Shown here: positions 3,722 to 24,000 of the stretch, piece by piece
How the letters are laid out: every line of letters begins with the position of its first letter
Numbering within the stretch: the stretch's first letter is position 1
Origin: Ketobacter alkanivorans
GTDB lineage: Bacteria > Pseudomonadota > Gammaproteobacteria > Pseudomonadales > Ketobacteraceae
Reading direction: 5' to 3'
DNA length: 24,000 bases
Assembly: GCF_002863865.1 (NCBI RefSeq)
Contig: NZ_CP022684.1
Coordinates: forward strand, 3,143,990-3,167,989
The notes under the pieces: model-generated
What the model saw: the letters and a program-made list of their open reading frames with translations, nothing else
What the model was told of the DNA's origin: nothing
The model's database searches: none
Made by a program: the position numbers and the translations under genes

Positions 3722-5371
3722 ATGACCGCTACCGTCATCGCCCGCCCCCAACCCTACTTGCCCAAACTGTTGCGGCGGGTGGGGTTGTTGCGCGCCTGCG
3801 CCTTGCTTTTGGCGCTGATGGTGGGCGCACCCCTGCTGGTGATTGCCTTCAGTTGGGGCGACGTTAATGCCGAGATCTGGTTGCATCTGGCCCAGACTCA
3901 ATTGTTCCGATTATTGGGCAACACCTTTGTTCTGGTGCTGGGAGTGGCGGTTCTGGTGCTGTTGATCGGTGTTCCCCTGGCCTGGTTCACCGCCACCTGC
4001 GACTTTCCGGGGCGGCGGGTGTTTGATGTGGTTCTAATGCTGCCTCTGGCCGTGCCTGCCTATGTTATGGCCTTTGTTATGGTGGGGTTGCTGGATTACG
4101 CAGGCCCGGTGCAGGGCGCCCTGCGGGACTGGTTCGGCCCCCAACTTTCGTTTAGTTTTCGGGGCACCTTCCCCGTGGTGCTGGTGATGTCGCTGGTGCT
4201 GTACCCCTATGTTTACATGCTGGCCCGCAGCGCCTTTTTGTCACAGGGGCGCGAGCCGCTAGAGGCAGCGCGAGTGCTGGGATATGGCCCCTTGCAGGGC
4301 TTTCTGCGGGTTGCGTTACCCATGGCAAGGCCTGCGATTATCGCCGGTTTGTCGTTGGCGCTGATGGAAACCCTGGCGGATTTTGGTGCGGTGGCGGTGT
4401 TCAATTACGATACCTTCACCACCGCCATTTATAAGGCCTGGTACGGTTTTTTTGATCTGCAAACAGCCGCCCAGTTGGCCTCACTATTATTGGTTATCGT
4501 GCTCAGCGGTCTTTACCTTGAGCGCAGCGGGCGTGGCTCGGCCCGCTATTTTCAAAATGGGCGGCGGCGTAATTCTAGCGCCCGCATAGCCTTATCCGGC
4601 TCCCGCGCCTGGTTGGTGTCCGCTTGGTGTGGGTTGGTGTTTCTGGTGGCCTTTGTGATTCCAGTGGGGCATCTGTTGCTGTGGATAATTCAAGGTGCCT
4701 GGCGCGGTTTGGATGAACGCTACCTGGGGTTGGTCGGGCATACACTCACCCTGGCTGCCATCGCCGCAGTGGTGACGGTGATCGCCGCCTTCCTGCTGGC
4801 GCTCTATCGTCGCACCTACAAGGGCGCGCTGTCTGGTGGAATCGTGCGGCTGGCCACGGTGGGCTATGCACTGCCGGGCTCTGTGCTGGCGGTGGGGATC
4901 ATGCTCAGTTTCAACTGGTTGGATGCCTGGGCAGCCCAACTGCAAACCGCCCTCGGCCTCAGCGTACAGCCCATCTTCGTCGGAGGCGTGCTGGCGTTGC
5001 TGCTGGCCTACACCACGCGCTTTCTGGCCGCCGCGTTCGGCCCGGTAGAAACCAGCCTGGATCGCATCAAACCCTCGATTCCCGAGGCCGCCGCCATTCT
5101 GGGGGCCCGTCCACCGGAGATCGTGCGCCGTATCTACCTGCCCATGCTGGCGCCGGGCCTGCTTACCGCCGCGTTGCTGGTGTTTGTGGATGTTATGAAA
5201 GAGATGCCAGCGACCTTGCTGATGCGTCCATTCGGCTGGGATACCCTGGCCGTGCGCATCTATGAAATGACCTCCGAAGGCCTTTGGCAGCAGGCGGCCC
5301 TGCCGGGGTTATCTATCGTATTGGTGGGGCTGGTGCCGGTGGTTATTCTGGTGCGCCGATCCGCCCGCTGA
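3722..5371 (+). CDS. Iron(III) ABC transporter permease, fused two-module type (FbpB-like)
   Basis: 549-aa polytopic membrane protein starting 12 nt after the binding-protein stop. It has two permease modules, each with an EAA-like loop ([26 protein letters not shown] and [26 protein letters not shown]). Confidence 0.85.
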
Positions 5372-5453: not shown

Positions 5454-5499
5454 TTTGGTACAAACAAGCTAACCCCCAACAGCATTGTTTTGGTACAAT
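5454..5499 (+). promoter_or_regulatory. Candidate gcv promoter/operator: direct repeat TTTGGTACAA (x2) with extended -10 TGgTACAAT
   Basis: TTTGGTACAA occurs at 5454-5463 and 5489-5498, and a third GTACAAT at 5435-5441. TGGTACAAT at 5491-5499 fits an extended -10 about 24 nt upstream of the gcvT ATG. No good -35 was seen. Confidence 0.25.
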
Positions 5500-5522
5500 C
5501 GTGCCAAAACAGGAGACCAAGC

Positions 5523-6605
5523 ATGGCCCAGCGCACAGCTCTATACAACAGCCACCTGCAATCAGGTGCCAAAATGGTGGATTTTGGCGGCTGGGACATG
5601 CCTATCAACTACGGTTCCCAGATCGAAGAGCACAACAGCGTGCGTACCGACGCCGGTATGTTTGATGTCTCTCACATGACCGTAGTGGATGTACAGGGGG
5701 CGGACTGTCGGGCCTATCTGCAGAAATTGCTCGCCAACGACGTGATCAAGCTCAAGACTCCCGGCAAAGCCCTCTACAGCGGCATGCTCAATGAAAAAGG
5801 CGGCGTGATCGACGATCTCATCGTCTACAACATGGAAGGCTGGTACCGGGTAGTAGTGAATTGCGCGACCCGTGAAAAAGATCTGGCCTGGATGGAAAAA
5901 CAGAGCGCAGGATACGATGTCAGCATCACCGAGCGCCCCGACTTCGCCATGATCGCCGTACAGGGCCCCAACGCCATCGCCAAAACCTGCGCCGTAGTGG
6001 GTGAGCCTAAAGCTGCCGTCATCAACAGCCTCAGCATCTTTCAGGGCCTGCCTGCCCAGGACTGGTTTATTGCCCGCACCGGCTACACCGGCGAAGATGG
6101 CCTCGAAATCATGTTGCCCAACGAACAGGCTCCCGGCTTTTGGCAGCAACTGATCGAAGGCGGCGTGGCTCCCTGCGGATTGGGCGCGCGCGATACCCTG
6201 CGCTTGGAAGCCGGTATGAATCTGTACGGTTCCGACATGGATGAAACCGTATCCCCACTGGCCGCCGGTATGGGCTGGACCATCTCCTGGGGCCCAGAGG
6301 AGCGCGACTTCATCGGCCGATCCTCATTGCAACAGCAAAAAGTAGACGGCGTGGACTTCAAACAGGTGGGCCTGGTGCTGGAAACCCGTGGCGTGCTCCG
6401 CGGTCACCAGAAAGTCATCGTAGAAAATGTAGGCGAGGGCGAAATTACCAGTGGTACATTTTCCCCGACCTTAGGCTATTCTATTGCTCTGGCGCGGGTT
6501 CCCGCCGCCACCGGCGATGTCGCCCAAGTGGAAATTCGAGGCAAGCTGCACGACGTCAAAGTCGTCAAAGCCCCCTTCGTCCGCAACGGCAAACAGGTTT
6601 TTTAG
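5523..6605 (+). CDS. gcvT: Glycine cleavage system aminomethyltransferase (T protein)
   Basis: [32 protein letters not shown]... is a typical GcvT N-terminus. ATG 5523 is preceded by AGGAGA (5511-5516). The track start at TTG 5490 is probably too long. Confidence 0.95.
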
Positions 6606-6655
6606 TTCAAATTTTTAACTCTTTTTTAAACCTTTATCAGTTCTGAGGAATGATC

Positions 6656-7042
6656 ATGAGCGAAATACCAACCGAATTGCGTTACCTGTCGTCACACGAA
6701 TGGGTTCGGGTAGAAGACGGCGTTGCCACCATCGGCATCACAGCTCACGCCCAAGAAGCCATGGGCGATCTGGTGTTTGTGGAAACCCCCGAAGTCGGCA
6801 CCACCCTGGCCGCGGGTGACGAAGCCGGTGTCGTTGAATCCGTAAAAGCAGCCTCCGACATCTACACCCCGGTGTCTGGTGAAGTGGTGGAAATCAACCC
6901 GCTATTGGAAGATGCCCCTGAAACCGTCAACTCCGATCCCTATGGCGATGGCTGGATGTTCAAAATTGAGATCGCCGACGGTGCCGAGCTGGAAAACACC
7001 CTCACCGCCGACGAATATCAGGCACAGATCGAAGACGAATAA
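6656..7042 (+). CDS. gcvH: Glycine cleavage system H protein (lipoyl carrier)
   Basis: [17 protein letters not shown]... with the lipoyl-lysine motif [14 protein letters not shown] 6656 lies 7 nt after GAGGA. ATG 6650 is the alternative start. Confidence 0.95.
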
Positions 7043-7070
7043 GTCGGTTGTAAAAACCGTCGCCGTAAAC

Positions 7071-7097
7071 AGCCCGATTCTTGCCAGTCGGGCTTTT
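7071..7097 (+). terminator. Weak intrinsic terminator/attenuator hairpin between gcvH and gcvPA
   Basis: AGCCCGA (7071-7077) pairs with TCGGGCT (7088-7094) around a 10-nt loop, followed by TTT. The stem and T-tract are short, so this may only modulate the H:P ratio or stabilise the mRNA. Confidence 0.35.
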
Positions 7098-7119
7098 GCA
7101 TTTATATCAGGACCCCAAC

Positions 7120-8499
7120 ATGCCCTACATTCCCCACACCGACGATGACGTAAAACGCATGCTCGACACCATCGGTGCCGACAGCATTGATGATCTGTTT
7201 GATGAAATCCCCAAAGACATCATCGCCCAGCCGCTGCAACACGTTCCAGCCGGAAAATCCGAGATGGAAACCACCCGCATCATGAGCGATCGTGCCGCCC
7301 ACGACAGCGGCAACCTGTGTTTTATCGGCGCGGGAGCCTACGAGCATCACATCCCGGCCGCCGTGTGGGAAATCGCCGGGCGCGGGGAATTCCTCACGGC
7401 CTACACACCCTATCAGGCCGAGGCCAGTCAGGGCACCTTGCAGGTCATCTACGAATTCCAATCCATGATCGCCCACTTAAATGGCATGGACGTCTCCAAC
7501 GCCTCCTTGTACGACGGCGGCTCCGGTCTGGCCGAGGCCGTGCTGATGGCCGTGCGCGCCAACCGCAAATCCAAATCCAAAAAAGCACTGGTGCTGTCCA
7601 GCGTTAACCCGCTCTACCGTCAGGCCACCACCAACATCGTCGAAAACCAGGGCCTGGAATTAGTAGAAGTGCCTTATTGCAGCGCGCAGGGCACCACCCC
7701 GGTGGATGCACTCAAGCACTTCGAAGGGCAAGACTTCGCCGCCCTCATCATCCAGCAGCCCAACTTTTTCGGCTCACTGGAAGACGTAGACGCACTAACC
7801 GACTGGGCACACGCCCACGGCATGCTGGTCATCGCCTCCGTCAACCCCACCTCACTGGCCATCCTCACCCCGCCCGGTGAATGGGGCGAAACTGGCGCCG
7901 ACATCGCCACCGGTGAAGGTCAGCCCCTGGGCGTGCCCTTGTCCTCCGGCGGCCCCTATTTCGGATTCATTACCTGCAAACAACAGCACGTGCGCCAGAT
8001 GCCTGGCCGCATCATCGGCCGCACCGTAGACATGGAAGGCCGCCCCGGTTTTGCCCTCACCCTGCAAGCCCGCGAGCAACACATTCGCCGCTCCAAAGCC
8101 ACCTCCAACATCTGTACCAACCAAGGCCTGGCCATGACCGCCGCCACCGTGTACATGAGCTTGCTGGGGGCAGATGGCTTAGAGCAAGTGGCCATTGCCA
8201 GCCACAACAACACCCAATCATTGTTAGAAAAACTCACAGCCATCGACGGTGTAGAGAAAGTCTTCAGCGCCGCCACCTTCCATGAAGTCGTCATCAGCCT
8301 GCCATTGAAAGCCACCACAGCGCTGAAAAAAATGGCCAAGCGAGGCATTCAGGGCGGGCTGGATTTGGGCGAGTACTACCCCGAACTCAGCAACTGCATA
8401 TTGTTATGTGCCACTGAAACCAAAACCCAAGCGGACCTTGATCGCTATGCCACCGTGCTGGCTGAAGTATTGGCCGACACCACAGAAGGAGCGCAGTAA
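7120..8499 (+). CDS. gcvPA: Glycine dehydrogenase (decarboxylating) subunit 1 (P protein alpha)
   Basis: [31 protein letters not shown]... is typical of the split P-protein N-terminal subunit. ATG 7120 is preferred over the track start at 7081, which lies inside the hairpin. Confidence 0.93.
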
Positions 8500-9956
8500 T
8501 GCTTATTTTTGAAAAAAGCCAAAGCGGACGCCGCGCCACCTCGCAGTCCCCCAAAGCACAACAACTTAAAGGCACCATCCCCGAAGGTTTGCTGCGCAAG
8601 CAAAAACCCTTGATGCCCGAAGTAGGCGAGATGCAAGTCGTGCGACACTACACCAACCTGTCGCGCAAAAACTTCAGCATCGACACCCAGTTCTACCCGC
8701 TGGGTAGCTGCACCATGAAATACAATCCACGGGGCGCACATCGTGCTGCCATGCTGCCAGGCTTTCTTGGCCGCCACCCCCTGGCACCGGAACAACATAG
8801 CCAAGGCTACCTGGCTTGCCTGTACGACCTGCAAGAAGTACTGAAAGACGTCACCGGCATGAAAGGCGTATCCCTCACCCCCATGGCCGGTGCCCAGGGT
8901 GAATTCGCCGGTGTCGCCATGATCCGCGCCTACCACGAAGCCCGCAACGACCACGAACGTACCGAAATCCTCATCCCCGAAGCGGCCCACGGCACCAACC
9001 CGGCCACCGCCGTTATGTGTGGCTACAAAGTGCGTGAAATACCCGTTAACGCCGACGGCGACGTTGACGTTGATGCCTTAAAAGCCGCCGTCGGCCCTCA
9101 CACCGCCGGACTGATGATGACCAACCCATCAACCTGTGGCGTGTTTGAACGAAAAATAAAAGAAATCGCCAAAACCGTTCACGAAGCAGGCGGGCTGCTC
9201 TATTACGATGGTGCCAACCTCAACGCCATCCTCGGCAAAGTGCGCCCCGGCGACATGGGCTTTGACGTGCTGCACATGAACCTGCATAAAACCTTCGCCA
9301 CGCCACACGGCGGTGGCGGCCCCGGCGCAGGCCCGGTTGGAGTAGGCGAGCGCCTGCTGCCCTACCTGCCCACGCCCATCGTTGGCAAAGAACACGTCAA
9401 TGGCGCCGACCACTATCGCTGGCTTACCGAAAAAGACATCCCCGGCACCATCGGCCGCCTGTCTACCTACATGGGCAACGCCGGTGTACTGCTGCGCGCC
9501 TACTTCTACGCCAGCGTACTGGGTAAAGAAGGCATGCACCGCGTCGGCGAATTCAGCACATTAAACGCCAACTACATGATGAAAAAAGCGGAGCAGGCCG
9601 GGTTCCAATTGGCCTACCCCAATCGTCGTGCCACCCACGAATTCATCATCACCTTGAGCAAGCAAGCGAAAGAGCTGCACGTGAGCGCCATGGACTTCGC
9701 CAAACGCATGCTCGACTACGGCTACCACGCACCCACCACCTATTTCCCATTACTGGTGCCCGAGTGCTGGCTGATCGAACCCACCGAAACCGAATCCCCG
9801 GATGAGTTGGACGGCTTCATCGAAGCCATGGTTAAAATCCAGAAAGAAGCCGAAGAAACACCAGACCTGGTAAAAGGCGCGCCCTATACCCAACCTGTGA
9901 GAAGGTTGGATGACGTGAAGGCGGCAAGGGAATTGGATTTGGTGTGGGGGAAATAA
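8499..9956 (+). CDS. gcvPB: Glycine dehydrogenase (decarboxylating) subunit 2 (P protein beta, PLP-binding)
   Basis: ATG 8499 overlaps the gcvPA TAA stop (TAATG), consistent with translational coupling. The PLP-lysine context is [18 protein letters not shown]. Confidence 0.93.
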
Positions 9957-17553: not shown

Positions 17554-17871
17554 TCAGGCCTTGTTGTGTGCGCTGGCGTATTTAAGCAGCTCGTCGGCGA
17601 CTCGCTCCCGTATTGCGTTTTGATCATTTGAATCCAGGCCGTATTTTTGCGCCAGAATCTCAAAGTCTTCACTTTTTAACGAAACCGTCAGGCGAGGGCG
17701 AACCGGTTTTTTGTTGTAAGGCAAGCCCAGGATTTTGCGGATCTGGTCAGGTGGATTCAGGTTGCTGTCCAGTGCTGCTTGTTTGATGGCGCGCTGGGCT
17801 TCTGCCGATACGTCAAATGCAACCTGCACCGCTTTGATAGCCTGTTTTTCTTTTTGCCAACGTTCATTCAT
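17554..17871 (-). CDS. Small hypothetical protein, possibly a tandem ribbon-helix-helix DNA-binding protein; last gene of the PspA operon
   Basis: Two segments fit a strand-helix-loop-helix pattern: VQVAFDVSAEAQRAIKQAALDSNLNPPDQIRKILGL and RLTVSLKSEDFEILAQKYGLDSNDQNAIRERVADELLKYA. The start is ATG 17871 (MNERWQ...) or GTG 17904, and neither has a strong SD. It lies 88 nt downstream of the PspA stop. Confidence 0.5.
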   Translation of the reverse strand: MNERWQKEKQAIKAVQVAFDVSAEAQRAIKQAALDSNLNPPDQIRKILGLPYNKKPVRPRLTVSLKSEDFEILAQKYGLDSNDQNAIRERVADELLKYASAHNKA

Positions 17872-17959
17872 GCTGATCTGCCTGTACGCACAACGCGACG
17901 CCACTCAATTGAGTAGGGTCGCGCTGCTTGGGTTGCGGTTTAATGGTTAAGTCTTCCGG

Positions 17960-18652
17960 TTACTGTTTTCCTGCTTTTATACGCGCTAAAATGTCTGCCG
18001 CTGATGCGGATTCACCTTTGATGCCCGCACTTTCCAGTTTGCTGTCCAGATCATTGCCCGACATCTCTTTCTCCAGCAGCTCGCCTGCTTCCATTTGATC
18101 CTGCTTCATTTCCTGACGGGCTTTGATGCGCTCCAGTGATTCCCGCGCAGAGTTTAACGTAGAGTTGTTGGATGCTACGTTTTCTACTACTTGCTCGGTG
18201 GCCTTTTGCACGCTTTCTGTGGTGCGCACAATGGACAGTTCCCGTTCGTGGTCGGCAATTAGCTTCTCGGCCTTTTTAATATGGGCTTTGAGTTGCTCGA
18301 CCTGGCCGGTTAAGCGCGCCACAATGGCATCTTGTTCGGCTTTATTGTTTTCCAGGGTGGCGATCTTGCCTGCTACTTCCAGTGCCAGTGCTTCATCATT
18401 CTGATCCAGAGCTTTGCTGGCATAGGTTTCATGATTGCGAATTTCTTCCACGAAGCTACTTACTTTGCGCTCAGCCTGCATCTTGCGAGCCATGACCTCT
18501 GTAAGGTTGTGCTTGGCTTGCCCGATGCTGGCTTTAGCGTCGACGATTTCCTGCTCGAAAATACGAACACCATTTGAGTCAACAATGGCATCACCCATTT
18601 CCCTTACGCCACCGCGCAGTGCGGTCCAGATTTTATTTAATACGCTGCTCAT
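17960..18652 (-). CDS. PspA/IM30-family (ESCRT-III-like) protein, YjfJ-like
   Basis: MSSVLNKIWTALRGGVREMGDAIVDSNGVRIFEQEIVDAKASIGQAKHNLTEVMARKMQAERK... is a long coiled coil typical of PspA_IM30. GGAGA lies 6 nt before the ATG. It starts 38 nt after the upstream YjfI-like gene. Confidence 0.88.
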   Translation of the reverse strand: MSSVLNKIWTALRGGVREMGDAIVDSNGVRIFEQEIVDAKASIGQAKHNLTEVMARKMQAERKVSSFVEEIRNHETYASKALDQNDEALALEVAGKIATLENNKAEQDAIVARLTGQVEQLKAHIKKAEKLIADHERELSIVRTTESVQKATEQVVENVASNNSTLNSARESLERIKARQEMKQDQMEAGELLEKEMSGNDLDSKLESAGIKGESASAADILARIKAGKQ

Positions 18653-18690
18653 GATCGTTCTCCGAAGATGGTTTGTTAAATGCCTGATGG

Positions 18691-19098
18691 CTACACAAGG
18701 TAATTTTCGATGGCTTCCAGTGCGTCGTAAGCGTTGGAGGCCAGGGTGATCAATTCTTTGCAGACTTCGTTAAAGCTGCTGCTGGTGGCCATGGCTCCAA
18801 ACACAACGTAGTAATCTTCTACGATCGCAAAGGAACTCAAGGGCATTGCTACATTCAATTCAAGCATGGTTTTATTGAGTTCGGCGATGCGCTTGGGCTG
18901 AATTTCGGTTTGCTTGCACAGATACGTAATGCACAGTATTTGGGTGTCGGTGATGGTAACGAATATCGGCATGGCATCCAGCTCCGATACGATTACCTGC
19001 AGCACCTCCTGCTCGCCGTGAATGGGTAAACAATCGAAGGTGTGCCCTTCGTAATTCACTTGTCCCAGTTGATAGGTGAGTTCCTGAATTTGGGTCAT
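18691..19098 (-). CDS. YjfI/DUF2170-like protein (secretion-chaperone-like fold), first gene of the PspA operon
   Basis: Motifs are PIFVTITDTQILCITYL ... MPLSSFAIVEDYYVVFGAMATSSSFNEVCKELITLASNAYDALEAIENYL. Its size and its position directly upstream of a PspA-family gene match the E. coli yjfI-yjfJ arrangement (from memory). ATG 19098 has AAGGAGA 9 nt upstream. The track start at 19122 lies inside an operator palindrome. Confidence 0.65.
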   Translation of the reverse strand: MTQIQELTYQLGQVNYEGHTFDCLPIHGEQEVLQVIVSELDAMPIFVTITDTQILCITYLCKQTEIQPKRIAELNKTMLELNVAMPLSSFAIVEDYYVVFGAMATSSSFNEVCKELITLASNAYDALEAIENYLV

Positions 19099-19117
19099 CG
19101 GCTGTCGTCTCCTTTTT

Positions 19118-19170
19118 GACATATTATGTCGATAAGGTTAAGGTTAGACCTCTATGACATAACATGTCAA
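19118..19170 (-). promoter_or_regulatory. Leftward promoter of the yjfI-like/PspA operon with two palindromic operators
   Basis: Palindromes are GACATATTATGTC (19118-19130) and GACATAACATGTC (19156-19168). Read on the minus strand: TTGACA (19170-19165) as -35, an 18-nt spacer, TAACCT (19146-19141) as -10, then the second palindrome just upstream of the SD. Confidence 0.55.
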
Positions 19171-19194
19171 GTGTTTCTGTTTAAGGGCCTAAAA

Positions 19195-19235
19195 GCTTGC
19201 TATTGTTCGGTCTCTCTATAGCAAGCAAGTATAGA
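19195..19235. repeat. Overlapping inverted repeats at the centre of the divergent intergenic region
   Basis: GCTTGCTAT (19195-19203) pairs with ATAGCAAGC (19218-19226) across a 14-nt spacer. TCTATA (19215-19220) pairs with TATAGA (19230-19235). Confidence 0.4.
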
Positions 19236-19255
19236 AAGGTATAACAATACAAATA

Positions 19256-19297
19256 TTGACATAATATGTCGAAAAGTCTAACTTGACATATTATGTC
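19256..19297 (+). promoter_or_regulatory. Rightward promoter of the NfeD/flotillin operon with two palindromic operators
   Basis: TTGACA (19256-19261) as -35 is embedded in the palindrome GACATAATATGTC (19258-19270). After a 17-nt spacer comes TAACTT (19279-19284) as -10. The palindrome GACATATTATGTC (19285-19297) lies immediately downstream, and the GGGGAG SD follows at 19305. Confidence 0.55.
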
Positions 19298-19314
19298 TTC
19301 TGTTGGGGAGTAAC

Positions 19315-19965
19315 ATGGAAGCGTTCTTTGCTAATATTTTTCACTATCCTACTGTTTTCTTTACGGTTTTGTTGCTGGTGTTGGCGGTATACTGGTTTTT
19401 CGCCATCCTCGGAATGATCGATATTGATGTGCTGGATCTGGACATGGATGTTGATGCGGATGTGGATGTTGATCTGGAAGGGTTAACTGGTTTGGCGGGG
19501 CTGTTGGTAACCTTGGGGCTGACCGGCGTGCCTGTGACGGTGGTCGTTACCTTGTTGTCGCTGTTGGCTTGGTTGGTCAGCTACTTTGTGGTGCATTTGT
19601 TCTTTTTTTGGGAGCCTGGCTCCCTGATGGGGTATTTGGTAGGTACGGCGGTGGTGCCGTTGGCTATCGCGGTATCGATACCGGTTACCGCGCAATTGAT
19701 CAAACCTTTGAAGCCTTTGTTTAAAAAAGCATACACGCCACCACCGGAGAAAGTACTGCTGGGGCGTACTTGCAACGTGCGTTCAACCCGCGTAGACGAG
19801 GCATTCGGCGAGGCGGCTGTGGATCTGGATGGTGCCAGTCTGATTCTGCGGATTCGCGCCAAGGCTGATGCCGGGCTCAAGCGGGGTGATGCTGTGGTGT
19901 TGATCGAACATCGGCCCGAGGACAATACCTATTGGGTTGTTCCGGAGCATGAGTTTAAAAAATAA
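19315..19965 (+). CDS. NfeD-like / YqiJ-family membrane protein with a C-terminal OB fold
   Basis: ATG 19315 lies 4 nt after GGGGAG; the track start is TTG 19303. It has several TM helices, an acidic loop DIDVLDLDMDVDADVDVDLE, and an NfeD-type C-terminal beta domain (LLGRTCNVRSTRVDEAFGEAAVDLDGASLILRIRAKADAGLKRGDAVVLIEH). It sits directly upstream of a flotillin gene, as in yqiJ-yqiK. Confidence 0.8.
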   Translation: MEAFFANIFHYPTVFFTVLLLVLAVYWFFAILGMIDIDVLDLDMDVDADVDVDLEGLTGLAGLLVTLGLTGVPVTVVVTLLSLLAWLVSYFVVHLFFFWEPGSLMGYLVGTAVVPLAIAVSIPVTAQLIKPLKPLFKKAYTPPPEKVLLGRTCNVRSTRVDEAFGEAAVDLDGASLILRIRAKADAGLKRGDAVVLIEHRPEDNTYWVVPEHEFKK

Positions 19966-20025
19966 CATTCATTTTTAATTATTAGTTCTGATTTAGTCGT
20001 TAATTCTAATAGAGGTACGGAAGCT

Positions 20026-22113
20026 ATGGATCTATCAATCATCATGCCTGTTCTAACGGTGGTGGGCTTTATTCTGCTGGTTTTGGTGGGGCTGTTATCC
20101 CTATTCAAGGCATTCTATATCAAGGTAGATCAGGGCAAGGCGCTGATTGTAAACGACATGTCATCTACGCCTAAGGTGTATTTTACAGGTGCGATGGTTT
20201 TACCGGTCATTCACCGCCGGGAGATCATGAAGATATCGGTGATCACATTAGAGATTGATCGTCGTGGCAAAGATGGCTTGATCTGTAAAGATAACCTGCG
20301 AGCGGATATCAATGTAGCATTCTATCTGCGCGTGAATGAAACCGCTCAGGATGTGCTGAAAGTTGCGAAAGCGGTAGGGGTTGAGCGAGCCTCCAGCAAA
20401 GATGCTGTTAATGAGCTATTCAATGCCAAATTCTCAGAGGCCCTGAAAACCGTGGGCAAGAAGATGGATTTTCTGGAACTGTTTGAAAACAGAATTCAGT
20501 TCCGTGATCGCATTATAGAAGTCATCGGTGAAGATCTTAACGGCTACGTATTGGAAGACGTGGCAATTGATTATCTTGAGCAGACTCCGAAATCCGCACT
20601 GGATCCTTACAATATCCTCGACTCCGAAGGTATTCGTCGGATTACCGAAATCACCGCCACCCAGAATGTTGAAACCAATCGTCTGGAGCGTGATGAAGAA
20701 CTTGAGATCAAGCGCAAAAATGTGTCCACCAGAGAGGCCATGCTGGAACTGGAGCGCCAACAGTCCGATGCCGAAGCCAAGCAGCAGCGCGAAGTAGAAA
20801 GCATCCGCGCCCGCGAACAGGCTGAAACACTCAAAGTTAAAGAAGAAGAGCGTCAGAAAGCGGAATCGGCGCGTATTTCTGCGGAGGAATCCATTCAAAT
20901 AGCAGAAGAAAACAAATGCCGCCAGGTAGAAATCGCGGGTAAGAATCGCGAGCGTGCAGTGGCTATCGAGCACGAGAAAGTTGAAAAAGCACGTCAGCTG
21001 GAAGTGGTGAATCGTGAACGTGAAGTTGAACTGCAAACCATTGAGAAAGAAAAAGCGCTGGAAGAAGAACGTAAGATAATCGCCAATACCATCAGTGAAC
21101 GTATTGCGGTTGAAAAGAAAGTGGCGGAAGAGGAAGAACGCATTAAAGACGTGCGCACTATCTCTGAGGCAGAGCGTTCCAAGCAGGTGAAGGTTTTGGA
21201 TGCGGAGGCAGATGCTCAAGAAGATCTGGTGAAGCATGTTAAGAAAGCTGAGGCCGAAGAATTGATGGCCACGCATCGCGCTAAAGAGATCAATGTCATT
21301 GCTCAGGCGGAGCTGGAAGCGGCTGCCAAGCAGGCTGAGGCCCAGATCAAGCGCGCTGAAGGCACTCAGGCCGAAGAAGCGGCTTCTGGATTGGCTGCGG
21401 CCAGAGTGCAGGAAGCCAAGGCGGTGGCATTGGAGAAAGAAGGTATTGCCAAGGCTAATGCTGATCAGGCGCAAGGCATTGCACGTGCCCGTGTGATCGA
21501 AGAGCAGGCTGCGGCCAACGAGAAGCAAGGCTTGGCTGATGCTCATGTGCTGGAAGAAAAACTGGCTGCGAAAGCGCGCGGTGAGAAGGAAATCGGCATG
21601 ACCGAAGTGAAGGTTATGGAAGGCAAGTTAACTGCCCAGGCCACCGGTGATGAAGCCATCGGTCGCGCTGCCGCAATCGCTGAGCGTGAGAAAGGTTTGG
21701 CAGCAGCAGAGATTATTCGTGAGAAAGCCCGTGCAGAAGCAGAAGGCCTGACCGATAAGTTCGATGCGATGAACAACATGAGCCCGGAAGCTCGTGAGTT
21801 TGAAGAGCTGCGTATGCGTCTGGAGCTGGCCTTCGAGGAAGTCATGGCAACAATTGCGGCCAATAAAGATATCGCTAAAGAGCAAGCGGATGTGCTGTCT
21901 GCAGCGTTGTCTAAAGCCAAGATCGAGATTGTTGGTGGCGAAGGGGATTACTTCAATAGCTTTGCCAAGGCGCTGTCGGTAGGTAATGCGATTAACGCGG
22001 TGTCTGGTAAGAGCCCTGTAGTACAGCAGGCGTTAAGTAAGCTGATGAGTCTGGGGGGCGGAGAGCAACCCGTTGCAACTGCACCGGATGTGGCAGTTGA
22101 TAAAGAAGCGTAA
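20026..22113 (+). CDS. Flotillin-family SPFH/Band-7 protein (YqiK-like) with a very long coiled coil
   Basis: It has an N-terminal TM helix (IIMPVLTVVGFILLVLVGLLSLF) and an SPFH domain (YIKVDQGKALIV ... LICKDNLRADINVAFYLRV ... LEDVAIDYLEQTP). An E/A/K/R-rich coiled coil of several hundred residues follows, with flotillin-like EA repeats. Confidence 0.9.
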   Translation: MDLSIIMPVLTVVGFILLVLVGLLSLFKAFYIKVDQGKALIVNDMSSTPKVYFTGAMVLPVIHRREIMKISVITLEIDRRGKDGLICKDNLRADINVAFYLRVNETAQDVLKVAKAVGVERASSKDAVNELFNAKFSEALKTVGKKMDFLELFENRIQFRDRIIEVIGEDLNGYVLEDVAIDYLEQTPKSALDPYNILDSEGIRRITEITATQNVETNRLERDEELEIKRKNVSTREAMLELERQQSDAEAKQQREVESIRAREQAETLKVKEEERQKAESARISAEESIQIAEENKCRQVEIAGKNRERAVAIEHEKVEKARQLEVVNREREVELQTIEKEKALEEERKIIANTISERIAVEKKVAEEEERIKDVRTISEAERSKQVKVLDAEADAQEDLVKHVKKAEAEELMATHRAKEINVIAQAELEAAAKQAEAQIKRAEGTQAEEAASGLAAARVQEAKAVALEKEGIAKANADQAQGIARARVIEEQAAANEKQGLADAHVLEEKLAAKARGEKEIGMTEVKVMEGKLTAQATGDEAIGRAAAIAEREKGLAAAEIIREKARAEAEGLTDKFDAMNNMSPEAREFEELRMRLELAFEEVMATIAANKDIAKEQADVLSAALSKAKIEIVGGEGDYFNSFAKALSVGNAINAVSGKSPVVQQALSKLMSLGGGEQPVATAPDVAVDKEA

Positions 22114-22170
22114 TGCATAGGAAACATTGGGGGTGAACGCCCCCTAAACAGGAATGTTGAGGGTCAGTAA

Positions 22171-24000
22171 GTGACAGTGAGTCAAACAGCATCTGAACAG
22201 CAGGTCGAGTCGGCGGTTTCTCAGGGCTCCGCTTATGAAGTCATCCGTAACCGATTGATTGATCAGGGTAGTCAGTTAGAGGCACTGGCTACACAGATAA
22301 ACCAACAGCGCATGGACGAATTCGGCTCCACCGAGCTCAATGTGATCGGTCGTACACGGGTACGTACCGAAAACAACTGTGTAGCGCGGGATATTGTGCG
22401 TGCCGGAGACTATTTGCTGTTTGGCTACAACGTTTTTATTGGCCTGAAACAGACCACCTCGGTGGAGGATGTGTTTTCGCTTTATCGGCTGGTGGAAGGA
22501 GACGGGTCGCTGGATATGGAGCCAGTGGCGACAGAGTCGACTTTCTTAGGTGATGCCCGGTTTGTGTCGGACTTTAACGAGCTTTACACCTATTACAAAA
22601 ACACGTTTCTAACTCAGTTGCGAGTAAAGGATGGACGCCTGCTGGCAGCGTTTCAGATCGGTGAACGTGATACCGATATCCGGGTGTTTCGTTGGTCGGT
22701 ATCGGCCGATGGTAAAACAATAGAGTACATTGATAACCGTGGTGAGCGCGATATTGAGTTGCCGCCGGCCTGGGATTTCGAATGGCAAGAGGTGAGCAGG
22801 GAGCTGATGGTGGATGGCCGTCATCCTCATATCAATGTTTTGGACACGATTTTTGTAGACACCATTCACGGCGATCTGACCATTAAAGTAGAGAACAACA
22901 CCCGCAGCGGTCAGGGTATCTATTCTGAGCCGGTGGAAGATGTAAACCAATCCCTGGACGATGCTGATTTTTATTTTGCGGAAATAGGGCAGTTGATACT
23001 GCTGCGCATCAAACCCTATCAAGAAGAAGCGTGGCGGCATTTGGTATTTAATCGCCTGAATAACAGCGTGGTGCGCATTGATGCTATCGGTGACAGCTGT
23101 CAGCAGTTGCCAGAGGATCATGGCATTGTTTTTCCGGGCGGTTACTATTTGCAAACTGGCGACTATAAGACCTTTGATGAGCCTCTCTATGGGCTGCGCT
23201 TTCGTCGGGTAATTCGCTCTCCCAATGGGGAAGATGTGCTCTATGTGTATTACCAGGCTGAGCAGGGTGTAGTCGCCCTTTATCCTTACAACATGATTGA
23301 AAAATCATTGCGTAATCCAGTTTATGGCCACGGCTATGGGCTTTTTGAGGATGGTCGCATGGTGGTGTTCTCTGCTGATGATGAGCCGACCCGCGTGCAC
23401 CCTATGCAAATCTGGCAATCTCCGTTCTTTAGTGATGTGCATGCCAGTCAGGCCCAGCAGTCGCAAAGTTTCTTTGGTCGTATTGGTAATGCCGAGCTGG
23501 TGCGTGGTATATCCGATTTGTTCAGTGTTGTGCAGCTGATTCGCAACCCTGAGGCAGCATCTGCCCATTACCTTGAATTGTGCAAATACGCGTCGCGTTT
23601 GTTCGACCAGTATCACTGGCTATCGGACAAAAGCCTTACGGATGTTCACGGCGTATTAAAGTCCATCATCGAATCCGGCGAGTTGGTGCTGGATGAGTAT
23701 GAAAAAGTTCAGAGTATTCGAAAAAGCTCGCAGCAGGCATTGTTGCAGGCCGAGCAGTCTGTTGCTGATCTGATCAAACAGTTGCAACCGGATGGCTGGA
23801 CGGTGCCGCAGCCGTATATGACCGCTATGATGGATATTCGAAAATTGCGCGGGCATTTGCTCACGATTTTAGAGTATCGTTATATCGATCAGGTACGTAT
23901 TCATGAGCTGGATGGCAAGCTCATGAACAAGCAAGGGTTTATCGCCGAGCGCACCATTGAATTCCTGGCCCAGGATGATTCGCTTGATCCATTCTATGAT
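22171..24000 (+). CDS. Large uncharacterised protein, 5' part only (at least 610 aa, runs off the window): coiled coil, then a beta-rich propeller-like region, then a helical region
   Basis: This ORF is not in the supplied track. I translated it by hand. GTG 22171 follows an in-frame TAA (22168-22170) and a GAGGG SD (22159-22163). There are 610 sense codons with no stop through base 24000. Translation begins VTVSQTASEQQVESAVSQGSAYEVIRNRLIDQGSQLEALATQINQQRMDEFG... It starts 57 nt after the flotillin stop on the same strand. All track ORFs in 22609-23856 are antisense to it. Confidence 0.75.
   Translation, partial: MTVSQTASEQQVESAVSQGSAYEVIRNRLIDQGSQLEALATQINQQRMDEFGSTELNVIGRTRVRTENNCVARDIVRAGDYLLFGYNVFIGLKQTTSVEDVFSLYRLVEGDGSLDMEPVATESTFLGDARFVSDFNELYTYYKNTFLTQLRVKDGRLLAAFQIGERDTDIRVFRWSVSADGKTIEYIDNRGERDIELPPAWDFEWQEVSRELMVDGRHPHINVLDTIFVDTIHGDLTIKVENNTRSGQGIYSEPVEDVNQSLDDADFYFAEIGQLILLRIKPYQEEAWRHLVFNRLNNSVVRIDAIGDSCQQLPEDHGIVFPGGYYLQTGDYKTFDEPLYGLRFRRVIRSPNGEDVLYVYYQAEQGVVALYPYNMIEKSLRNPVYGHGYGLFEDGRMVVFSADDEPTRVHPMQIWQSPFFSDVHASQAQQSQSFFGRIGNAELVRGISDLFSVVQLIRNPEAASAHYLELCKYASRLFDQYHWLSDKSLTDVHGVLKSIIESGELVLDEYEKVQSIRKSSQQALLQAEQSVADLIKQLQPDGWTVPQPYMTAMMDIRKLRGHLLTILEYRYIDQVRIHELDGKLMNKQGFIAERTIEFLAQDDSLDPFYD

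Follow-up and report, generated by a model that had tools for sequence, protein, structure and literature searches.

Two operons diverging from a shared 216-bp intergenic region lie within a 24,000-nucleotide stretch of the Ketobacter alkanivorans genome (NCBI RefSeq contig NZ_CP022684.1, positions 3,143,990 to 3,167,989), referred to here as the window. The minus-strand operon encodes a DUF2170 protein, a PspA/IM30 protein and a candidate ribbon-helix-helix (RHH) protein of 105 amino acids (aa), and the plus-strand operon a YqiJ-like membrane protein, a flotillin and a giant AAA+ protein. An initial annotation had listed these six open reading frames (ORFs), all of which are present (Table 1), and had read them as one tightly repressed machine for membrane remodelling or envelope defence. 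Its observation is confirmed and its interpretation is supported in part. The module is of a known kind, a Ketobacter-lineage copy of the PspA-centred membrane-maintenance set, and what the window adds is a divergent two-operon layout as a variant and a clear regulator-operator pair, the latter apparently not described so far. The annotation overlooked that its 'small ORF' is the likely reader of the palindromes lying between the operons.

Genes and control region of the divergent operons

The ORFs were taken from an ORF list, after which their proteins were searched with Pfam profiles, and the window was extended with an identical metagenome contig, L001 (JGI 3300028892), which carries the giant ORF past position 24000 and completes it at 1761 aa. 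The gene identities first assigned proved correct in Pfam, BLASTP, hhalign and PDB comparisons. The DUF2170 gene, whose start at 19098 is preceded by an AAGGAG ribosome-binding site, lies directly upstream of and adjacent to the PspA gene, and its product matches PDB entry 8q8o ('DUF2170 family protein', E 5e-7), which is the crystal structure of Pseudomonas aeruginosa BacA and has the fold of a type III secretion system (T3SS) chaperone. PspA counterparts of 40-89% identity were found by tblastn in 76 of 80 related genome loci, and three of the four misses are contig-end cuts.

Neither the 695-aa nor the 216-aa plus-strand protein matches any Pfam model, Band_7 and NfeD included, and the labels 'flotillin' and 'NfeD'/YqiJ-like are nonetheless upheld by other comparisons. 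The 695-aa protein aligns with Escherichia coli YqiK over 455 aa (BLASTP E 5e-41), shares 64% identity with 'flotillin family protein' P0223 of P. aeruginosa, and is 100% identical to a protein of a Ketobacter sp. metagenome-assembled genome. None of the roughly 8000 matches in this BacD/YqiK-like flotillin family carries a precomputed Pfam Band_7 annotation, despite clear YqiK homology; the Band_7 model seems to miss this branch. The 216-aa protein has N-terminal transmembrane helices and a C-terminal beta-rich domain, and is 41% identical to its P. aeruginosa counterpart. As a single sequence it finds no significant BLASTP match to E. coli YqiJ, but its family profile (A2) aligns with YqiJ at 92.5% hhalign probability (E 5e-7), and two relatives in the family match YqiJ_N weakly.

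In the complete giant protein, a DUF3686 region at the N-terminus is accompanied by a coiled coil bearing DUF7902 and by an AAA+ domain (full-length Pfam E values: DUF3686 3e-203, DUF7902 2e-22, AAA_5 4e-6, AAA 7e-6). Its Walker A (PPGYGKT) and Walker B (MLYLDD) motifs, together with the AAA and AAA_5 matches, mark it as an AAA+ ATPase. The parallel that had been drawn to the AAA ATPase recycling ESCRT-III does not extend to sequence. A Vps4-type enzyme (Vps4/meiotic clade) was considered and rejected when phmmer with the C-terminal 561 aa returned only RuvB from the PDB (E 1e-3), and any likeness to Vps4 may be one of functional analogy.

The 216-bp divergent region contains four copies of GACATAWTATGTC, beginning at 19118, 19156, 19258 and 19285 and amounting to 8 strand-matches where 0.05 are expected, a number equalled in no shuffle. 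The consensus is a 6+1+6 palindrome, GACATA-W-TATGTC, which corrects the form given earlier. The further claim that the copies are placed identically relative to a TTGACA element in each direction holds for the distal site of each promoter and fails for the proximal sites, which lie 27 bp from the distal site on the yqiJ side and 38 bp on the DUF2170 side.

We read the promoter geometry from an alignment of 75 related loci. All but one of them have TTGACA (-35) fused to the distal palindrome, a TAnnnT hexamer follows 16-18 bp past TTGACA, and the proximal palindrome comes immediately after; the place of the 19118-19130 operator is conserved throughout. The two sites stand exactly 27 bp apart at 10 of 12 yqiJ promoters, compared with 30-38 bp for most DUF2170 promoters, and 10 other divergent loci with the 27-bp spacing have TAATTT, TAGTTT, TAGATT or TAAATT at the place of the plus-strand -10. 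A sigma-70 consensus scan does not call the proposed promoters, reporting hexamers inside the palindromes instead, and the promoter assignment therefore rests on conservation in the 75 loci. The operators overlap the -35 and the stretch directly past the -10, which is consistent with the repression first suggested.

Table 1. Coordinates of the six genes, of the operators and putative promoter elements between them, and of operator pairs found at other genes (window positions unless a contig is named).
Feature	Position	Strand	Remarks
Tandem RHH candidate gene	17554-17871	-	105 aa, no Pfam match
PspA/IM30 (ESCRT-III-like), YjfJ/BacB type	17960-18652	-	PF04012 PspA_IM30, E 7e-40
DUF2170/YjfI/BacA-type, CesT/T3SS-chaperone fold	18691-19098	-	PF09938, E 8e-38
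Proximal operator, DUF2170-PspA-RHH promoter	19118-19130		Exact GACATATTATGTC; between -10 and ribosome-binding site
Putative -10, TAACCT	19141-19146	-	18 bp past TTGACA
Distal operator fused to -35, DUF2170-PspA-RHH promoter	19156-19170	-	Operator 19156-19168 (1 mismatch); TTGACA 19170-19165
Distal operator fused to -35, yqiJ-flotillin-ATPase promoter	19256-19270	+	Operator 19258-19270; TTGACA 19256-19261
Putative -10, TAACTT	19279-19284	+	17 bp past TTGACA
Proximal operator, plus-strand promoter	19285-19297		Abuts -10, spans expected transcription start
YqiJ/YuaF-like membrane protein, BacC (PA3730) counterpart	19315-19965	+	216 aa
Flotillin/YqiK-family SPFH, long coiled coil, BacD (PA3729) counterpart	20026-22113	+	695 aa
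Giant DUF3686-AAA+ protein, BacE (PA3728) counterpart	22171 to window end (24000)	+	N-terminal 610 aa; PF12458, E 3e-203
Site pairs at YidC-type genes	L092:8920-8962, L121:389-432, L158:2044-2087, L164:3698-3738, L178:936-977		Five metagenome contigs

Elsewhere in the window, and unrelated to these operons, are a complete glycine cleavage cluster (5490-9956; gcvT, gcvH and a P-protein split into two subunits) and, upstream of it, an ABC transporter with two histidine kinases (6-2539).

The 105-aa protein and its co-occurrence with the palindrome

The product of the sixth gene belongs to a conserved family of 441 homologous clusters, which all carry the annotation 'hypothetical' and have no Pfam domain. 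In the family alignment, two helices come after each of the blocks ..KAxQVAFD.. and ..RPRLTVSL.., and the invariant residues fall in two predicted strands (K13/Q16/F19/D20 and R58/P59/R60/L61/T62). In an AlphaFold2 model, strand 15-17 is followed by helices 23-35 and 40-48 and, after a 14-residue linker, strand 63-65 by helices 67-77 and 84-104, the last of them elongated; the model has no other strands. This topology suggests that the protein is likely a single-chain tandem RHH protein. Ravi et al. (PMC11237479) named the last gene of a Shewanella-type PspA operon an RHH transcription factor, and that gene is a relative within the 105-aa family.

One genome per species was scanned, yielding 385 loci that encode the family, of which the best 80 were analysed; 77 of these have enough flank. 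In every one of the 77 the small gene lies directly downstream of DUF2170-PspA, and a palindrome pair stands upstream of DUF2170 in all but two (L044 and L075, with one detectable copy each). Three architectures are present. Thirteen loci are divergent as in the window, as is the Hahella locus L083, and have four sites, two per promoter (type A). Another 17 are colinear, in the order DUF2170-PspA-RHH-YqiJ-flotillin-ATPase, with two sites before DUF2170 in 14 and one, one and three in the others (type B). A further 47 read lipoprotein-DUF350-spermine synthase-DUF2170-PspA-x-RHH, without flotillin or ATPase, and have two sites before DUF2170 and, in most loci, one more at the first gene of the operon (type C). 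This single third palindrome, which stands some 4 kb ahead of the pair at DUF2170, is found for example at L055:4331-4343, with equivalents in most Colwellia, Shewanella and Thalassotalea loci.

That the six genes are colinear in 17 other genomes and divergent in 13, and that the number of operator pairs tracks the number of promoters, upholds the proposal that both operons belong to a single co-regulated unit. The palindrome stays essentially invariant while the 105-aa protein falls to about 50% identity. Loci of P. aeruginosa, Halopseudomonas and Budvicia that do not have the small gene contain no palindrome within one mismatch of the consensus. Operator and regulator gene occur together as a matter of direct observation, on the same footing as the gene identities and the operator anatomy.

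These loci have features of their own. The Budvicia aquatica cluster (L085:8991-18941) is abbreviated, with yqiJ, flotillin and ATPase genes and no PspA; genes for a rhomboid protease and a PLD-family protein come next, and palindromes are absent. The bacA upstream regions of Pseudomonas and Halopseudomonas (L082 around 2789-2822 and L084 around 7896-7930), where published work has proposed a sigma-54 site, do not contain GACATAWTATGTC; another motif, TTACATGTGA / TCACATGTAA, occurs there twice, immediately ahead of the called bacA start, and may serve a different regulator as its operator.

The association was also examined from the opposite direction, starting from the operator pair. Among 120 metagenome stretches chosen by the site pair alone, 91 have DUF2170 adjoining it, and at least 7 more are accounted for by DUF2170 genes truncated at a contig end, by a yqiJ-like gene or by the RHH gene. 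The pair also stands upstream of a short YidC/Oxa1-type insertase in five contigs, of an SPFH/Band_7 gene in two and of a small membrane protein in three. In the first group, from five unrelated contigs (Table 1), a TTGACA-fused pair lies 15-17 bp before the start of an insertase of about 216 aa (PF02096), which suggests that the insertase is an extra regulon member. In the second, a pair with 19-bp spacing (L087:2101-2132 and L109:2692-2723) lies upstream of the gene for an SPFH/Band_7 protein of 307-324 aa (PF01145, E no higher than 1e-32), a second SPFH gene beneath the same operator. The third group (L117:3176-3220, L136:480-524 and L118:410-454) consists of proteins of 126-144 aa with several transmembrane segments and no Pfam domain, those of L117 and L136 being clearly homologous. 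A standalone RHH gene with its own pair at 4871 and 4908 is found on L100 (4344-4679, minus strand), with no DUF2170 or PspA nearby and with an uncharacterised 195-aa ORF after it.

Some other metagenome hits were discarded. TelA (L135) was rejected as a regulon target because the promoter there points to a truncated DUF2170 gene, and NhaA (L113) because the TTGACA fusion is lacking; the site pairs of L141, L149 and L205 are chance tandem repeats.

Comparison with described systems

The gene combination had been called uncharacterised, which does not hold. Ravi et al. (2024; PMC11237479) described an operon class that joins a CesT/Tir(DUF2170)-PspA dyad to a YqiJ/YuaF-type protein with several transmembrane segments, to a protein of the band-7/flotillin kind and to a large AAA+ ATPase with a beta-rich N-terminal domain (DUF3686) and a coiled coil, sometimes with a PLD-family hydrolase, and one member of that class, the bac operon of P. 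aeruginosa (PA3732-PA3727, bacA-F), has been studied experimentally. The picture of a chaperone, an ESCRT-III-like polymer, a scaffold and an ATPase offered in the initial annotation likewise repeats an inference already in print. The six bac genes are co-transcribed (PMC10948618). Osmotic shock induces PA3731, loss of this gene (ΔPA3731) impairs biofilm formation, swarming, virulence and the production of rhamnolipids, and Bac proteins accumulate in a bacA mutant (PMC2587700, PMC10948618).

Five genes of the window have orthologues in the bac operon and keep their relative order there: DUF2170, PspA, YqiJ-like, a flotillin as close as noted above, and the DUF3686-AAA+ giant. Unlike the bac operon, it divides them into two divergent units, has the extra RHH gene after pspA, and is without the PLD gene (bacF), no PLDc_2 gene following the ATPase. 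Its promoters are sigma-70-like and carry the four palindromes, whereas Pseudomonas loci have no such palindromes and a proposed sigma-54 site. The single-operon layout, the sigma-54 promoter and the PLD gene are lineage-specific features and do not define the class.

The Shewanella/Colwellia-type PspA operon, the second group of Ravi et al., resembles the window in its DUF2170-PspA-RHH triad and in the operator pair before DUF2170. It comprises genes for a lipoprotein, DUF350, a transmembrane spermine synthase, DUF2170, PspA, a DUF4178-like protein and RHH; unlike in the window, the partners are polyamine and DUF350 genes rather than flotillin and ATPase, and a third, single operator stands at the first gene.

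The best structural neighbours of the 105-aa protein are F-plasmid TraY, AvtR of an archaeal virus and DndE, described in the literature as single-chain proteins with two RHH units, and AvtR is reported to repress its own gene. The 105-aa protein is predicted to resemble them in its strand-helix-helix, linker, strand-helix-helix arrangement with a long last helix. There is, however, no detectable sequence relationship, the partners and targets differ, and the site here is a perfect 6+1+6 palindrome, paired at sigma-70 promoters.

The E. coli Psp system also has a PspA-family effector, and the DUF2170-PspA and YqiJ-YqiK pairs of the window are homologous to E. coli yjfIJ and yqiJK. In E. coli these two pairs are unlinked and the giant ATPase is absent, unlike in the window. 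PspF, PspB and PspC domains were found in no ORF of the window or of L001, and control here would be by a repressor rather than, as in the PspF/sigma-54 circuit with PspABC, by an activator.

A proposed repressor circuit and its alternatives

The interpretation that we favour, and consider probable, is that a known gene set is here organised as two divergent sigma-70-type operons repressed by the tandem RHH product; the 105-aa protein is quite probably the regulator acting at the palindromes. We infer that it is the binder of these sites, that it serves as a repressor and that membrane stress releases it. On the distal site the repressor would mask the TTGACA -35 and on the proximal site the transcription start, so that RNA polymerase would be kept off both promoters. 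Since the operators lie over the -35 and transcription start of promoters with a perfect -35, repression would be by occlusion. The regulator would also be subject to negative autoregulation, because its gene is the last of a repressed operon, and it would repress some other membrane genes in trans. That membrane stress would lift the repression, possibly with PspA or DUF2170 as partners in the manner of PspA and PspF, is speculation. Once made, PspA, flotillin and ATPase would act jointly at the inner membrane, a role taken from published work on PspA and the bac operon.

Several points weigh against this reading. Confidence in the 105-aa model is moderate (pLDDT 75), and its top Foldseek neighbours (AvtR, F TraY and DndE) are statistically weak (E 0.68-3). 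The protein has no match in Pfam (E <= 10), NCBIfam or PDB profile searches (E <= 10), and hhalign finds no similarity or repeat in RHH register between its two halves. The -10 hexamers of the window, TAACTT and TAACCT, agree with TATAAT at 3 of 6 positions and are weak, below the scan threshold. The negative controls are three RHH-less loci only; moreover, co-occurrence is no proof of binding, and another conserved factor of these genomes could read the palindrome. Finally, the P. aeruginosa operon has been proposed to be sigma-54 dependent and under negative control through BacA, and because regulation clearly differs between lineages, the inducing signal is not simply transferable from that species.

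The foremost alternative, which we regard as unlikely, accepts a shared regulator but takes the two operons to be independent neighbours, with no joint PspA-flotillin-ATPase machine. In its favour, 47 of the 80 RHH loci combine the DUF2170-PspA-RHH triad with no yqiJ, flotillin or ATPase gene inside 10 kb, Budvicia has the latter three genes without PspA, and the regulon extends to unrelated membrane genes. Against it stands the repeated linkage of the two gene sets, which are colinear in 17 loci, divergent in 13 and in Hahella, and colinear in Pseudomonas even without the RHH gene. Both sets were found to be co-transcribed in P. aeruginosa by reverse-transcription PCR (PMC10948618), and Ravi et al. 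report the same linkage across bacteria (PMC11237479).

More doubtful still is the possibility that the palindromes serve a different, unlinked factor, the small ORF being an adaptor- or antitoxin-like accessory of PspA that does not bind DNA. Such a role would agree with the lack of significant homology to DNA-binding families and with the weak fold matches. The site pair also occurs at unlinked YidC-like and SPFH genes, so its binder acts in trans and need not be encoded beside its sites. This possibility is countered by the joint presence of small gene and palindrome in all 77 informative loci across three architectures and by the absence of both from three loci. A doubled beta-alpha-alpha topology whose two strands hold invariant basic and polar residues, the RHH label given independently by Ravi et al. 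(PMC11237479) and the standalone gene of L100 with its own site pair likewise argue that the small protein is the binder.

An anti-phage or other envelope-defence system, as initially suggested, is very improbable: although PspA was discovered as a phage-shock protein and a large ATPase under tight repression might resemble some defence systems, PADLOC returned nothing for five of the proteins and only coiled-coil noise (LmuB/JetC) for PspA, the flanking genes are housekeeping ones (CorA, cyanase, glycine cleavage, a Na+/H+ exchanger) rather than a defence island, the locus occupies varied chromosomal contexts without defence genes, and the phenotypes known from P. aeruginosa relate to biofilm, swarming and osmotic stress.

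Extending repression by the tandem RHH product beyond the window, we propose, with opinion evenly balanced, that an unnamed tandem-RHH repressor family and its near-invariant 13-bp operator define a conserved membrane-homeostasis regulon of marine and environmental Gammaproteobacteria, among them Ketobacteraceae, Kangiellaceae, Colwelliaceae, Shewanella, Catenovulum, Hahella, Zooshikella and others. Its targets would be PspA with its chaperone, to which different lineages would add flotillin with the giant AAA+ ATPase, a polyamine module, SPFH proteins and a short insertase of the YidC type. Searching the literature for the operator sequence turned up nothing but unrelated primers.

Our findings leave the general picture of this type of system unchanged. 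A simple repressor/operator circuit, conserved across many genera and legible in the sequence, allows the regulon to be delimited computationally and supports the view of a joint deployment of PspA, chaperone, flotillin and ATPase, while the 216-bp region fused to GFP is a possible reporter for the inducing stress. If the proposed circuit is correct, it would offer, with a repressor at its core, an alternative to the circuits of PspF and Lia and provide a direct genetic handle on the stimulus to which the PspA-flotillin-AAA+ machine responds.

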